IMG/VR virus record: IMGVR_UViG_2547132415_000009
Location: 1-4,142 of that record
Direction: 5' to 3' (one strand)
Source of the DNA: a virus
Lineage: Duplodnaviria; Heunggongvirae; Uroviricota; Caudoviricetes
DNA: 4,142 nt
The notes beneath the pieces were generated by a model. It was not told where the DNA came from. It worked only from the letters and a program-made list of their open reading frames with translations, and ran no database searches. Position numbers and translations under genes: made by a program. Positions 1 to 4,142 of the stretch are shown one piece after another. The first letter of the stretch is position 1. Each line of letters starts with the position of its first letter.

Positions 1-110
1 TCATCGGTTCGTCTGAGAATTACGTGCAACTGCGCACGCGACACCCGGAGACAACGGCTGACTAAGCTTACTCCCCATCCCCGGGCAATAAGGGCGCGTG
101 CGCTATCCAC
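1..110 (-). CDS. insD: IS2 transposase OrfB (InsD), N-terminal 36 codons only; rest lies beyond the window edge
   Basis: Minus-strand translation from GTG at 110: [37 protein letters not shown], the N-terminus of IS2 InsD. It is in the -1 frame relative to InsC and overlaps its 3' end. Confidence 0.88.
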
Positions 111-433
111 TTTTTTGCACGCCCGTATTCAACGGCTTCTTTAAGGAGTTCATTTTCCATCGTTTTTTTGCCGAGCAGGCGCTGGAGTTCTTTAATCTGC
201 TTCATGGCAGCAGCAAGTTCAGAGGCAGGAACGACCTGCTCTCCTGCGGCCACAGCAGTAAGACTTCCCTCCTGGTATTGCTTGCGCCAGAGAAATAACT
301 GGCTGGCTGCCACACCGTGTTGCCGGGCAACAAGGGAGACCGTCATTCCCGGTTCAAAACTCTGCTGAACAATAGCGATCTTTTCCTGTGTAGTACGCCG
401 TCTGCGTTTCTCCGGTCCTAAGACATCAATCAT
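68..433 (-). CDS. insC: IS2 transposase OrfA (InsC), 121 aa
   Basis: Translation [53 protein letters not shown]... matches IS2 InsC as I recall it. The ORF-track start at 478 is a spurious N-terminal extension into the terminal repeat; the ATG at 433 is the authentic start. Confidence 0.93.
110..116 (-). other. A6G slippery heptamer (A AAA AAG in the InsC frame) for programmed -1 frameshifting to make the InsCD fusion transposase
   Basis: Minus strand reads GTGCAAAAAAGTGG. In the InsC frame the codons are GCA AAA AAG, immediately before the InsC/InsD overlap. This is the classic IS3-family frameshift arrangement. Confidence 0.7.
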
Positions 434-483
434 CTGCTCTCCAATGACTAGTCTAAAAACTAGTATTAAGACTATCACTTATT

Positions 484-524
484 TAAGTGATATTGGTTGT
501 CTGGAGATTCAGGGGGCCAGTCTA
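484..524 (-). repeat. IS2 left terminal inverted repeat (IRL, about 41 bp) at the element/prophage boundary
   Basis: The terminal TAGACTGG... motif ends exactly at 524. The adjacent left-end region (441-500) contains the palindromes ACTAGT...ACTAGT and TCACTTAAATAAGTGA typical of the IS2 left end. The exact inner boundary of the IR is approximate. Confidence 0.8.
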
Positions 525-1268
525 AACGCCGATCTCACACGTAACCAGTAAAGGAAAACTAGTTCTCCAATTTAGCTCGCCAATTACAGGCATTCGCTCA
601 CTACAGCTTATCCAACTATCCGGAGTTACCGGATAGTTGCGCATTGCGACCTTTAATGCCTCATAGAAGCAACCTTTCAGATTGTTGAACTGACGCCCAT
701 TAAGAGGACCGTGTTCAGTAAGCATGTTGCGTAATTTCCATGCCGCGTCGTTTACTTCGTTGGATGACAGGGGAGGCAACTTGTAAGTTTGGCTTACAGG
801 TTCGGCACCATGAAGCATGGCGCCGCTCCGCTCTATGCCATCCAGCGCGATTCGCAGTGCCTGAATTGTGGTAGAGCTATCGTTTGGGGCTATTCCATAT
901 CGCTCGAATACAGCTAAATGGTTGCGCATAATCTCAGGCGTAAGCTCTTTGTAAGCATAAGCAAGAGGCTCTGATGCATTATCCGGCACAACCGACGCAG
1001 GCGCGGCAGCATAAACAGGAATAACGTCAGCTTGCTCTTTATTGCTTTCATCCGTTAAAGCCCAGAATAATTTCCCGGCCGGATGTTTGAAAATATAAGC
1101 AACTGGATCTGCTTCCAGCGATGCCAGTGCAATTTTAAATGCGGTAAGTATGTTGTTAACCACACCTATTTCGAATGCTATTTCACTACATACAAACGAT
1201 TTATCGTCTATTATCGACTCAATTCCGGTAATCGTGTTCTGTAACCATTCTTTGGTAAGAGTATTCAT
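522..1268 (-). CDS. Hypothetical prophage accessory protein, 248 aa as read; 3' end truncated by the IS2 insertion (stop codon supplied by the IS2 terminus)
   Basis: Long ORF with ATG at 1268, 2 nt after the stop of the upstream 63-aa ORF. The final codons GGC GTT TAG use 522-524, which are the terminal TAG... nucleotides of IS2, so the native C-terminus is missing. No family recognised with confidence. Confidence 0.6.
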   Translation of the reverse strand: MNTLTKEWLQNTITGIESIIDDKSFVCSEIAFEIGVVNNILTAFKIALASLEADPVAYIFKHPAGKLFWALTDESNKEQADVIPVYAAAPASVVPDNASEPLAYAYKELTPEIMRNHLAVFERYGIAPNDSSTTIQALRIALDGIERSGAMLHGAEPVSQTYKLPPLSSNEVNDAAWKLRNMLTEHGPLNGRQFNNLKGCFYEALKVAMRNYPVTPDSWISCSERMPVIGELNWRTSFPLLVTCEIGV

Positions 1269-1270
1269 AA

Positions 1271-1462
1271 CTATTTCACTTTAATCTCAATATTTCGCAG
1301 CTTTAGCTCTACTGGCAGGTCTGACTTTCCTGTTAACGCTAATGCGAGATTTTCAGGAGTAATGAGAGCAGTTATTGTTTTCCCTATTGCCAGACGAATA
1401 ATCATTCGTATCTCGCGATCGTCACATGCTCCCGGTCGAACAATTGATATTTGTCCGATCAT
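1271..1462 (-). CDS. Hypothetical small protein, 63 aa (MIGQISIVRPGACDDREIRMIIRLAIGKTITALITPENLALALTGKSDLPVELKLRNIEIKVK)
   Basis: ATG at 1462 is preceded by AAAGGAGAG (GGAG 6 nt upstream), and that Shine-Dalgarno overlaps the TGA stop of the upstream 217-aa ORF. The ORF-track start at 1492 looks like a spurious extension. No homology recognised. Confidence 0.5.
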   Translation of the reverse strand: MIGQISIVRPGACDDREIRMIIRLAIGKTITALITPENLALALTGKSDLPVELKLRNIEIKVK

Positions 1463-1463
1463 C

Positions 1464-2117
1464 TCACTCTCCTTTGATGCGAATGCCAGCAAGCCAGTTT
1501 CTTATGCCGATATATTCAGCGTTCCTGAAACCGCTTTTTACATATATAAATGGCAAGCGAAGATTGTGACCATTGGCTGCCAGGTAGTCTTTACAACCCT
1601 GTTCGGTGAAACAGCAGGTAACGAATTCATCAATATCTTTCACAGCAACGCGCCGCCATTTTTCTGGTGGTTCCCGAAAGTTTTCATGAAGTAGTTCGAG
1701 ACGACGACTTTGGAGTTTATTGGCTTCATTGCTATCTTCATCAACCCAGACAATCCGGTCATAGTCATAATCAGCATCAACAACAATTTCGCGCTTTTGA
1801 TACACACAAAACATAGGGTCTGACGTTATTCGATTATCCTGTGTTCGAATGTTTTCACCGATGATGCCAAACGAATCTGGCGTAGGTTTTGTCTGTAACT
1901 CTTCGATACGTTCAGCCAGCGCCGCGCACTTGGCCTCAAGGTTATCAATCGTGATTCCAGCAGAACGACACTCCCGCAACGCCGTTTCCAGTTTTGATTC
2001 AAGTTCACCGAACTTACGGACAAGATATTCAGCGTTTGTTTCGTTAACCTTTAAATCTCGTGGGATGCATTTACCTTTCAGAAATCCATCCATCTCAATT
2101 AGTGACATTTGTTTCAT
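1464..2117 (-). CDS. Hypothetical protein, 217 aa; predicted coiled-coil N-terminal half and acidic, Cys-containing C-terminal half
   Basis: Longest unassigned ORF. The ATG at 2117 overlaps the TGA stop of the upstream 54-aa ORF (ATGA) and has GGAG 9 nt upstream. The ORF-track start at 2135 is a GTG with no Shine-Dalgarno. The helical heptad-like stretch [44 protein letters not shown] is judged by eye. Confidence 0.6.
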
Positions 2118-2278
2118 TTCTTCCCACTCCGCCACATCGCATTCAGATATTTGTTTTGATTCACTGACGGAAAAGAATTTCTCTTAAGCAATTCCTCTCT
2201 CGATGGCATTGGCTTTACGCGTTGGCGAATAATCATTTCTGCCGGAAGAATGCCGGGATTGTATGCAAGTCCTCTCAT
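2114..2278 (-). CDS. Hypothetical small basic protein, 54 aa ([54 protein letters not shown])
   Basis: ATG at 2278 has a strong Shine-Dalgarno (TGAGGAA, 6-nt spacer) that overlaps the TGA stop of the upstream 97-aa ORF. Its own stop overlaps the start of the 217-aa ORF. The ORF track shows a longer 104-aa form from 2428, which would overlap the 97-aa gene out of frame; I prefer the short form. Confidence 0.45.
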
Positions 2279-2288
2279 GGTAAATTCC

Positions 2289-2582
2289 TCAGTCATTACT
2301 GATAGCGCCATAACGTGAGCGGTAATTACGCAGGCGCGGGTCAATTTCAGGGAAGTGGGTATATGTGGCTTTGCGGAATGGTCGGATTGATGTCTGGTAA
2401 ATTCGCTCGCGTTCTTCTTTCTCTGCAAGCCATATACAGTGGCGAAATTCCTTTTCCTCTTTCGTTTCCTGCGGTAGAGACATTATTCGGTCGTAGTTTT
2501 TTCTGAATTTATCCAGCACCTCCGATACGGAATTGCCGGAACAGCGGCGCGGGTCATCCGCACCATACAGAGGCGCTGGCAT
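2289..2582 (-). CDS. Hypothetical highly charged protein, 97 aa
   Basis: ATG at 2582 is preceded by TAAGGAT (AAGGA, 7-nt spacer) in the 23-nt gap after the SSB-like gene. Translation [63 protein letters not shown]... No homology recognised. Confidence 0.55.
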
Positions 2583-2605
2583 AATTAAATCCTTATTTTT
2601 CTAAA

Positions 2606-2989
2606 TCAGAATGGGATGGAATCGTCGTATACAGGAGTGTTCTGCTGGTTACTACTTTGCTGCTGCGGGCCATTTCCTGAAGCTGCAAATCCAATCTTTG
2701 CATTCAGTAATTCAAGAGTGATTGATTGACCATTTTGCCCCTGATAAACATCAACCCTGATGTTTTCTCCGGTAATTTCCACAATGCCACCTTCAGCAAG
2801 AACACTACGGTAGTAATCCGCTTGCGCTCCCGGCTTGGCAAATACAACGGCGCTGTAGTTTGTCCATTCTTTCTTTTTTGTCTGGCGATCGTAATACTGA
2901 ACGCCAGCACGGATGTTGAATCCGATATTTTCCCCGGCCTGAAACTCTCTTGCGGGCTTGTTTAGTCTTACAGTAATCGAATGTGCCAT
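2606..2989 (-). CDS. Phage single-stranded-DNA-binding-like protein (lambda Ea10-like), 127 aa, with acidic C-terminal tip ...VYDDSIPF
   Basis: The C-terminus ends in DDSIPF, closely resembling the conserved SSB C-terminal protein-interaction tip (DDDIPF). The start ATG overlaps the erf stop (TAATG at 2987-2991). The ORF-track N-terminal extension to 3079 runs inside erf and is rejected. The Ea10 family assignment is from memory. Confidence 0.65.
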   Translation of the reverse strand: MAHSITVRLNKPAREFQAGENIGFNIRAGVQYYDRQTKKKEWTNYSAVVFAKPGAQADYYRSVLAEGGIVEITGENIRVDVYQGQNGQSITLELLNAKIGFAASGNGPQQQSSNQQNTPVYDDSIPF

Positions 2990-3594
2990 TAAGCGGCCGC
3001 CCCTTCTAATTCGTCTCGTCTGATGTTGTAAACGTCCTGCGCTTTGTGCTGCTCCGGTGTGCCTTCGAGCATCTTCCACGCTTTGGCGAACGCCTGTTTA
3101 AGCTCTTCCACGGTGTTTTTCTGCAATGCTGCGTCAGTGAATGCTTTTAGAACCTGTTCAGGTGTAGGTGATGGTTTTGATTGCTTTGCTGCTGCGTTCT
3201 GCTGATGTTTATGCTCGTCGGTATCTGCATCTTTCGCATCATCAATGCCGAACAAACCATTGAGGCAATACTTGCGTGCATAAGAGCTTGTAGCTCCAGT
3301 AACTTGTGCAGAATCCATTCCTTTCTTGCTTTCTTCCTCTCGTGCAAGAGCGGTTGCCGTATGACTGTTTTCGCCATCGGTAATAGTTGCCGTGGCTTTC
3401 ACGTAATACCGATCACCAATCAACACAACTTCATCGCTGATTGATAAAAACAGGCCATTCAGTAACGGCTTAACGCCTTCAAGAATGTCTTCGCAGCTTC
3501 TGTATTTATATTTGCCGAATGAGTTGTACTGATTCTTTGGCGCGTTCAGATTCTCCTGAATAGCTGCCAGTCTTGCGTAAAATTCTTTGCTCAT
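2989..3594 (-). CDS. erf: Erf-family single-strand annealing protein (essential recombination function, P22 Erf-like), 201 aa
   Basis: Translation MSKEFYARLAAIQENLNAPKNQYNSFGKYKYRSCEDILEGVKPLLNGLFLSISDEVVLIGDRYYVKATATITDGENSH...ATSSYARKYCLNGLFGIDDAKDADT matches the P22 Erf N-terminal domain as I recall it. The start is placed at the ATG at 3594 (MSKEF...); the ORF-track start at 3624 is a TTG extension. Confidence 0.85.
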   Translation of the reverse strand: MSKEFYARLAAIQENLNAPKNQYNSFGKYKYRSCEDILEGVKPLLNGLFLSISDEVVLIGDRYYVKATATITDGENSHTATALAREEESKKGMDSAQVTGATSSYARKYCLNGLFGIDDAKDADTDEHKHQQNAAAKQSKPSPTPEQVLKAFTDAALQKNTVEELKQAFAKAWKMLEGTPEQHKAQDVYNIRRDELEGAAA

Positions 3595-3683
3595 ATGTTT
3601 GTTCTCAGAATGGACATGGCCCAAGGAAATAACGCTGATTTAATACTTCAGTCTTTGCCGCATTTAAAAATACGCGAACACCT

Positions 3684-3854
3684 TCACGATCTCCCTTCTG
3701 GCGATACATTAACGCCTGCTGCGTGTACATGCGTCTCTGTAACTTGCTCTCCTTCACTGTGGTTGCAAGTGACATGCATATCTCCTTCGTTACCGATTAA
3801 TTCTTTCATCTGACGAATGAATTCTTCGTCTGACCAGTTATCTGTAAAACTCAT
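3684..3854 (-). CDS. Hypothetical small acidic protein, 56 aa, with a His/Cys cluster (MHVTCNHSEGEQVTETHVH); sits where kil/arf lie in P22
   Basis: ATG at 3854 overlaps the TGA stop of the cIII-like ORF (ATGA), with AAGG 6 nt upstream. The ORF-track start at 3884 is a TTG extension. No confident homology. Confidence 0.45.
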   Translation of the reverse strand: MSFTDNWSDEEFIRQMKELIGNEGDMHVTCNHSEGEQVTETHVHAAGVNVSPEGRS

Positions 3855-4021
3855 GGACGGCCTTGTTGTTTCAAAATATCCCAAAGCTTTTCGAGCAAAC
3901 TTTTCATTCTTGGTTGTTTAAAGTCTGCTCCGGTTAAAATATTTTTTCGTGAATGCTGTACCGATAAAATCGGGTTGAAAGGGCGAACCGATGCCGCCCC
4001 TGCAATAGCGAACTGTTGCAT
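3851..4021 (-). CDS. cIII-like small regulator, 56 aa (MQQFAIAGAASVRPFNPILSVQHSRKNILTGADFKQPRMKSLLEKLWDILKQQGRP); putative FtsH-inhibitor family
   Basis: Not in the supplied ORF track; found by hand translation. Strong Shine-Dalgarno AAGGAG with a 6-nt spacer before the ATG at 4021. The N-terminal MQ-FAIAG and C-terminal KLWDILKQQGRP resemble lambda CIII (MQYAIAG... KRLIDILNQPGVP) as I remember it, and the length is similar. Confidence 0.5.
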   Translation of the reverse strand: MQQFAIAGAASVRPFNPILSVQHSRKNILTGADFKQPRMKSLLEKLWDILKQQGRP

Positions 4022-4142
4022 AGGATGCTCCTTCTGTTTGATTGCATAACGAAAACGCCTCGAGTGAAGCGTTATTGGTATGCGGTAACGCCGCGCTCAG
4101 GCGGCTTTGATAGTCATATCATCTGAATCAAATATTCCTGAT

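Follow-up and report, generated by a model that had tools for sequence, protein, structure and literature searches.

In a 2025 survey of 325 lambdoid phages (Genome Res; PMC12315714), an anti-RecBCD protein, a single-stranded-DNA (ssDNA)-binding protein (SSB) and a SAP (single-strand annealing protein) were listed together as a class of recombination module (Abc2+SSB+SAP), and HK97 gp40, whose fold as predicted with AlphaFold 3 resembled that of bacterial SSB, was named SSB-1b. The main text of that survey makes no mention of a C-terminal tip and leaves the "shuffling of partner interaction domains" beyond its scope. The SSB of phage HK620 (HkaK, or "SSB-2"), which was assigned to Pfam DUF669, promotes annealing and recombineering by Sak4, an effect for which its final six residues, NDYPPF, are required (PMC5928155), and E. 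coli SSB is bound at its final nine residues by the C-terminal three-helix bundle of lambda Redbeta (PMC6393309). Here we describe a window of 4,142 nucleotides (the whole stretch of DNA that was analysed; positions 1 to 4,142 of IMG/VR record IMGVR_UViG_2547132415_000009, a Caudoviricetes virus) in which an erf annealase gene is followed by a gene for a 127-amino-acid (aa) SSB-like protein and then by abc2. All positions are numbered on this window, and all genes of interest lie on the minus strand. The erf/SSB-like gene pair, to which attention had been drawn in an initial annotation made from the letters alone, proved genuine and had been read correctly; it is an ordinary pair, known in essence from earlier work, in which it is catalogued. 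The new points are that the host-type tip is conserved in SSB-1b and that it may pair with a portable C-terminal domain of annealases. The features concerned were as follows.

2989-3594, minus strand: erf, encoding an ERF-family single-strand annealing protein of 201 aa (ATG to TAA), identified by Pfam, PHROG and identity to phage proteins
3166-3582, minus strand: Erf N-terminal annealing core, aa 5-143, the extent of the Pfam ERF match
2992-3162, minus strand: Erf C-terminal domain, aa 145-201, predicted as a three-helix bundle and not covered by the Pfam ERF model
3000-3005, minus strand: Shine-Dalgarno-like AAGGGG inside the 3' end of erf, 10 nucleotides (nt) before the SSB-like ATG
2987-2991, minus strand: TAATG stop/start overlap, in which the erf TAA and the SSB-like ATG share one base at 2989
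2606-2989, minus strand: SSB-like gene, orthologue of HK97 gene 40, 127 aa plus stop (ATG to TGA)
2675-2989, minus strand: OB-fold domain of the SSB-like protein, aa 1-105
2630-2674, minus strand: disordered Q/N/S/P-rich linker, aa 106-120, with low pLDDT and hypervariable in length and sequence among homologues
2609-2629, minus strand: C-terminal tip YDDSIPF, aa 121-127, resembling the host SSB C terminus (E. coli FDDDIPF)
2289-2582, minus strand: abc2, anti-RecBCD gene and third member of the recombination module (Pfam Anti-RecBCD_p2, E = 6e-64; PHROG_656, E = 2.6e-55)

The SSB-like protein was 93.7% identical to HK97 gp40 over 127 aa and 97.6% identical to HK542 gp29, and the position of its gene between a SAP gene and abc2 showed a synteny identical to that of HK97-type phages. 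The open reading frame (ORF) has hundreds of homologues, single clusters holding up to ~1,650 member sequences, and most records label the family "hypothetical protein." A match with full-length coverage was obtained to PHROG_44, "single strand DNA binding protein" (E = 5.1e-27). When a profile of 48 family sequences was compared by hhalign with E. coli SSB, a probability of 91% and an E value of 9.6e-7 were obtained; the corresponding values for a database-derived Sf6 SSB were 78% and 1.8e-5. All 178 residues of the E. coli SSB sequence used agree with PDB 1EQQ/4MZ9. E. coli SSB stacks on ssDNA through W40, W54, F60 and W88, and these residues were aligned by hhalign to Y32, W42, F50 and Y82 of the SSB-like protein. 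Within the 48-sequence family the same columns held Y in 47/48, W in 47/48, F in 48/48 and Y or F in 48/48. AlphaFold2 modelled residues 1-105 confidently as an OB fold and residues 107-121 as disordered (pLDDT <50). A Foldseek search with the OB-fold model found bacterial and mitochondrial SSBs as the best matches (E ~2e-5), and the best PDB structure matches were SSB and PriB. PHROG_44, hhalign, AlphaFold2 and Foldseek therefore agreed with the initial proposal of an SSB-like OB-fold protein carrying a host-SSB-type tail. As judged from profiles and the predicted model, these results place it with the SSB family as a highly diverged OB-fold member, and ssDNA binding is predicted.

Family membership was narrower than fold. 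Of the family searches that the initial annotation had suggested, PHROG_44 gave an SSB assignment, and the SSB models of Pfam and NCBIfam and the comparison with lambda Ea10 gave none. Among the 48 relatives, 7 touched Pfam PF00436, the best at E = 0.0038 and below the cutoff. An exhaustive profile search of 1.84 billion proteins recovered only 217 clusters at 50% identity, and the SSB-1b family is therefore small and sharply apart from canonical SSBs in sequence. The protein belongs to SSB-1b/PHROG_44 and lies outside Pfam SSB (by threshold), DUF669 and Ea10. Three candidate kinships were discarded: that with lambda Ea10, which the initial annotation had raised, because BLASTP gave no alignment at E ≤ 100; that with P22 Abc1 as a degenerate homologue, for which BLASTP gave no match to the 127-aa protein; and that with the HK620-type SSB-2 (DUF669), the 127-aa protein having no Pfam match of any kind.

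The positions of erf and the SSB-like gene, the TAATG at 2987-2991, the length of 127 aa and the DDSIPF ending were all confirmed from the sequence, the C terminus reading ...NTPVYDDSIPF. The consensus of the tip across the family was [FWY]-D-D-x-[IP]-P-F. Among 109 full-length close homologues, 82 ended in [IVPL]-P-[FY] and 2 more in DDDAPF; family-wide, 66/119 representatives (50% identity) ended in -PF, and in about a dozen further representatives the motif was altered at one residue or slightly extended. The linker before the tip ranged from ~15 to ~90 residues, was rich in Q, P, N and G and could not be aligned among homologues. As the D-D-x-I-P-F ending was kept in most homologues while the linker varied freely, the ending is not due to chance. 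Conservation of a tip behind a free linker is what marks a functional docking peptide at an SSB C terminus. Likeness to the host tail extended further in some relatives, which were close to E. coli SSB over the final 12 to 13 residues: the final residues are EEPPMDFDDDIPF in the Yersinia phage protein and NEPPADWDEDIPF in that of Vibrio phage K19, compared to NEPPMDFDDDIPF in E. coli SSB. In the library of papers that was searched, none had the string DDSIPF.

Some SSBs encoded after Erf ended in ...DDDIPF followed by a recurring extension of 15 to 20 aa (for example, IPF-APIGLQ...., IPF-SCVGLQYGKHRIYAL). These were the SSB of mEp554 (locus L009, 2133-2600; L numbers denote the loci compared) and those of representatives P0265, P0293 and P0295. 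In mEp554 the extension overlaps the start of the following HNH-type endonuclease gene, and the extension may be a masked tip or else an artefact of read-through or frameshifting. The annotation of Sf6 remarks on 14 residues common to its endonuclease and E. coli SSB, which could not be reproduced from the sequence.

The gene upstream is a member of the ERF superfamily, as the initial annotation had recognised. Erf matched Pfam ERF (PF04404) over aa 5-143 with E = 2.1e-44 and 151.6 bits (cutoff 25) and PHROG_155 (Erf-like) with E = 1.6e-57, and was 100% identical to HK542 Erf and 74.6% identical to P22 Erf. For the C-terminal domain, AlphaFold2 modelling of a 63-aa construct with 20 homologues gave a pLDDT of 88 and helices at 7-20, 24-38 and 43-61; the domain is a candidate partner-docking module. 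No Pfam family covers the domain, which is ~55 aa long, and a homologue search with the domain alone yielded only 18 fragment matches and was not useful. Homologous copies with 36 to 51% identity were found at the ends of several annealase types: the ERF proteins of HK97 and P22; the Rad52/22-type Sf6 gp28 and a Yersinia phage protein (Pfam Rad52_Rad22, E = 3e-20); the RecE-RecT fusion of phiV10 and proteins annotated as RecT-like; and a P-loop-motif protein of Erwinia phage Ehr59, which is possibly Sak4-like. Genes bearing the domain lie at 1297-2001 in L007, 1479-2186 in L012, 917-2677 in L011 and 1805-2668 in L010. The domain is a mobile module on at least four different annealase cores, which is new here, and was found alongside SSB-1b, a canonical SSB or Abc1 or with no phage SSB nearby.

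An annealase gene of the ERF or Rad52 type lay immediately upstream of the SSB-1b gene in HK97-like phages, a Serratia prophage, a Yersinia phage, Vibrio phage K19 (both proteins ~50 to 56% identical to those of the window) and four metagenomic or metagenome-assembled-genome contigs, and the pairing noted in the initial annotation was thus a conserved one. In one further context, Erf lay ~0.9 kb upstream of SSB-1b. Nine contexts were informative for covariation of the tip and the Erf C-terminal domain. SAPs with the three-helix domain were paired with a tip-bearing SSB-1b in 4/4 cases, and the tip-less SSB-1b variants followed Erfs with unrelated C termini in 3/3 cases. A second Erf C terminus, unrelated to the first (...WI[ND][AL]VK....L.QITDPAYK.FIKTNAGI), was present in three metagenomic contigs (L014, L020 and L023); in two of these, the adjacent SSB-1b lacked -IPF and had a Q-rich end instead (NFQQPR, FNQPQR).

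The initial annotation had read the TAATG pentamer (CATTA on the plus strand at 2987-2991) as implying coupled translation. The overlap is present, but as evidence for a special coupling it had been overstated. TAATG after an annealase gene was also found in HK97, P22, the Yersinia phage, mEp554 and a Serratia prophage (L016), and the gene that follows differed: in P22 it is the unrelated abc1, in the Yersinia phage an SSB-1b gene after a Rad52-type SAP, and in mEp554 a canonical PF00436 SSB gene after erf. In Sf6 the ATG directly follows the TAA, and in Vibrio K19 there is an 11-nt spacer. Overlaps of 1 and 4 bases were frequent in these operons, with several in HK97 and P22, and the cIII/orf56 junction in the window is ATGA. 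The SSB-like gene has its own Shine-Dalgarno-like site, AAGGGG, at the place where HK97 has the canonical AAGGAG, so strict translational coupling would not be required. The RNA at the junction was less structured than shuffled controls (z = +1.46), with no coupling-enforcing structure found, and no internal promoter or terminator was found between erf and the SSB-like gene. Overall, the two genes share a transcript and are tightly packed, and termination-reinitiation is possible, being neither required nor special.

We consider it likely that Erf, SSB-1b and Abc2 make up a recombination module of the HK97/HK022 type, in which the tip most likely docks Erf. RecBCD modified by Abc2 would resect phage DNA ends and so produce ssDNA, which the SSB-like protein would coat. 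The flexible linker would then present the host-type tip YDDSIPF, and the tip, as a docking peptide, would bring Erf onto the SSB-coated ssDNA, probably through the C-terminal three-helix domain of Erf, after which annealing would proceed. Co-transcription from pL and the TAATG abutment would favour roughly matched synthesis. Docking of Erf by the tip, and a role for this in recombination, are proposed by analogy: given the precedents of HK620 SSB with Sak4 and of Redbeta with SSB, reading of the tip by the neighbouring annealase would be no less likely than reading by host factors, although a host-like tip could in principle be read by host SSB-tip-binding proteins too.

Several observations weigh against this reading. 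For the 127-aa protein, no match was found in Pfam (E ≤ 0.01) or in NCBIfam, and PDB sequence searches, whether with a single sequence or with a profile, were non-significant; the profile matches had E values of ~0.5, the best two being the SSBs Rim1 and SsbB. TM-scores of the model to SSBs were only 0.4 to 0.54. Five contexts (L008, L019, L021, L022 and L025) had no recognisable SAP near SSB-1b, and in L023 and L024 the tip was kept without the three-helix domain. Tip/domain covariation of 4/0 versus 2/3 gave a one-sided Fisher value of ~0.12 from few, non-independent lineages; with numbers too small for significance, the covariation is a lead and not a result. It was not possible to demonstrate that the C-terminal domain of Erf matches Redbeta in fold, and hhalign was negative. 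The domain also occurs where a phage SSB is absent (P22, phiV10 and Erwinia Ehr59), and its ligand therefore cannot be a phage SSB alone. Its varied partners suggest that the ligand is probably something ever-present, such as the host SSB tip, and a phage SSB that keeps a host-type tip would fit the same socket.

Loss of the tip in close homologues, which the initial annotation had named as telling against its reading if without functional consequence, was seen, although the tip was otherwise kept in most homologues. In the HK97 reference sequence, gene 40 has a 1-nt insertion that turns DDSIPF into DDSNPILI, again a point against docking by the tip; the insertion site (L001, 1902-1946) reads TCCAATCCC versus TCCATCCC. 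In HF4s (L002, 1894-2289) a poly-A run has A5 and not A6, and the resulting frameshift leaves the gene in two pieces, a 94-aa "ssb protein" and an ORF of 36 aa. The lesions in HK97 and HF4s may be genuine inactivations or errors of sequencing. Endings of ILF or ITF were seen in several prophage copies from Salmonella and Cronobacter, the altered proline being the one that is changed in E. coli ssb-113. As HK97 is propagated in the laboratory, growth there does not need the tip if the HK97 sequence is right. Because such tip-altered close relatives exist, phages appear to remain viable without the tip, which is to be expected of a function that is accessory in recombination.

Three other explanations were weighed against the docking of Erf by the tip. 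That the tip mainly recruits or titrates host exonuclease I (ExoI), RecQ, PriA, chi, RecO and RecJ, as the initial annotation had in part suggested, seems to us on the unlikely side. The tip is near the host sequence, over the last 12 to 13 residues in some relatives, and tip-bearing SSB-1b proteins occur without an adjacent annealase (L022, and L025, in which the motif is internal) and behind Erfs without the three-helix domain (L023 and L024). As L022 to L025 have tips without that domain, something else must read the tip there. ExoI is a 3' ssDNA exonuclease, however, and its recruitment would work against annealing intermediates. In the two phage systems that have been tested, moreover, the partner shown for the tip is the phage annealase (PMC5928155, PMC6393309). 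Recruitment of host proteins is in any case compatible with docking of Erf.

It is improbable, in our view, that the protein is an SSB for phage replication whose place beside erf reflects operon packing only. Some family members do adjoin genes of replication or nucleotide metabolism, such as the dUTPase gene upstream in Vibrio phage 1.284.A, and other phage SSBs, including T4 gp32 and T7 gp2.5, serve replication. The replication genes of lambdoid phages, however, sit in the rightward operon, whereas erf and abc2 closely flank the SSB-like gene, with spacers of 0 to 23 nt, and adjacency to a SAP gene persists down to ~50% identity across hosts. The tolerance of HK97-like phages for loss of the tip or a frameshift in the gene is also hard to square with an essential role in replication. 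Least probable is an OB-fold protein that does not bind ssDNA, whether a PriB-like adaptor or a scaffold-plus-tip decoy. PriB scored about equal to SSB in the fold searches and sequence similarity to SSB stayed under Pfam thresholds, but conserved aromatics fill all four SSB stacking positions and the layout of domain, linker and tip is that of SSB; PriB has no such tail.

A broader and more tentative extension of the docking of Erf by the tip, one that we would hold slightly doubtful, is that the host-type SSB tip and the three-helix domain are a standard "plug and socket" of many lambdoid annealases. With the same reservation, the socket may take either the host SSB or a phage SSB that bears the same plug. 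If true, this would explain the free swapping of annealase cores (ERF, Rad52/22, RecT and Sak4-like ATPase), the swapping of SSB types (SSB-1, SSB-1b or none) and the loss of the tip only in those SSB-1b lineages that stand beside Erfs with a different C terminus. Erf and SSB-1b would then be self-contained, independent of host SSB and usable for recombineering elsewhere. Outside E. coli, whether annealase and host SSB tail are compatible is reported to matter in recombineering, and an Erf travelling with its own SSB could sidestep this limit. The tip and the portable domain offer a testable hypothesis for how shuffled lambdoid Rec modules stay functional, and the evidence justifies renaming the "hypothetical protein" family "phage SSB."

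The DNA of the window was 96 to 98% identical to the early-left (pL) operon of HK542, HK022, HK97 and HK106, and likewise to that of the mEp series and several Stx-converting phages; pL-operon DNA of this kind is present in a large share of E. coli genomes. The remaining features, in transcription order, were as follows.

3851-4021, minus strand: cIII homologue, first in transcription order
3684-3854, minus strand: 56-aa ORF, overlapping the second 56-aa ORF
3605-3775, minus strand: second 56-aa ORF, between the first and erf
2114-2278, minus strand: 54-aa ORF, counterpart of HK97 gp38, annotated as DUF2737 family in related records
1464-2135, minus strand: ead/Ea22-like gene, downstream of the 54-aa ORF
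after the ead/Ea22-like gene and before the IS3-family end: two more early-region ORFs
68-478, minus strand: InsC-like ORF of an IS3-family element (Pfam HTH_Tnp_1, 2e-19)

At 4054-4073 on the minus strand, a short way upstream of the cIII homologue, lay a terminator-like hairpin and then a T-run; a putative pL-operon terminator is annotated at this position in HK97, and this is consistent with N-antiterminated transcription of the recombination genes. The two 56-aa ORFs upstream of erf overlap by 92 nt in different frames. In HK97 the same stretch is one 83-aa gene (42.1), residues 1-43 of which equal ORF 3684-3854 and the C terminus of which matches ORF 3605-3775, and Sf6 carries a split form of this arf-position gene (gp30/gp29). 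The split reflects a frameshift site or else an indel polymorphism in this gene, the N terminus of which has only an SDEEFI motif in common with P22 Arf (E = 0.19). ORFs on the opposite strand beneath the erf/SSB-like region had no family support. The left end of the window (1-524) is the terminus of the IS3-family element, which we take to be IS2, ORF 68-478 reading like InsC of IS2. A 248-aa early-region ORF at 522-1268 (PHROG_6847/PHROG_60) runs into the IS end, and its C terminus appears to have been truncated or replaced by the insertion. As none of the complete E. coli genomes in the collection covered at least 80% of the window, the junction between IS and prophage is not common.

Known systems were compared with this locus. 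Lambda Ea10 is also a small protein of the early-left operon and of similar length (122 aa), but it has no sequence similarity to the SSB-like protein and its gene sits upstream of cIII. The erf-abc1-abc2 module of P22 shares an Erf with 74.6% identity, a conserved abc2 and the same TAATG junction, whereas its middle gene encodes the unrelated 94-aa Abc1 and P22 encodes no SSB. Abc1 itself (L005, 2118-2402) matched Pfam Sigma70_r4_2 with 27.0 bits (cutoff 25.7; E = 3e-6) and, from this match, looks like a helix-turn-helix protein. Bacterial SSB (PF00436; PDB 1EQQ/1EYG) has in common with the SSB-like protein an OB fold, four stacking aromatics, a disordered Q/P/G-rich linker and a D-D-x-I-P-F tip; it differs in that identity is ~15%, and the SSB-like protein has a far shorter linker and a tip with Ser in place of the third Asp. 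Redbeta has a Rad52-like N-terminal core joined by a low-complexity linker to a bundle of three helices (~60 aa) at its C terminus, and the same architecture is predicted for the C-terminal domain of Erf. HK97 gp40 (SSB-1b) is of the same family and lies in the same slot between erf and abc2, the difference being that the tip is frameshifted in the HK97 reference and intact in the window. The HK620 SSB occupies the abc1 slot of a P22-like module, is followed by abc2 and has a host-like tip, but it belongs to another SSB family and its partner is the RecA-like Sak4, compared to the Rad52-like Erf here. By analogy, the SSB-like protein of the window would work like the HK620 SSB, though it is not a DUF669 member.

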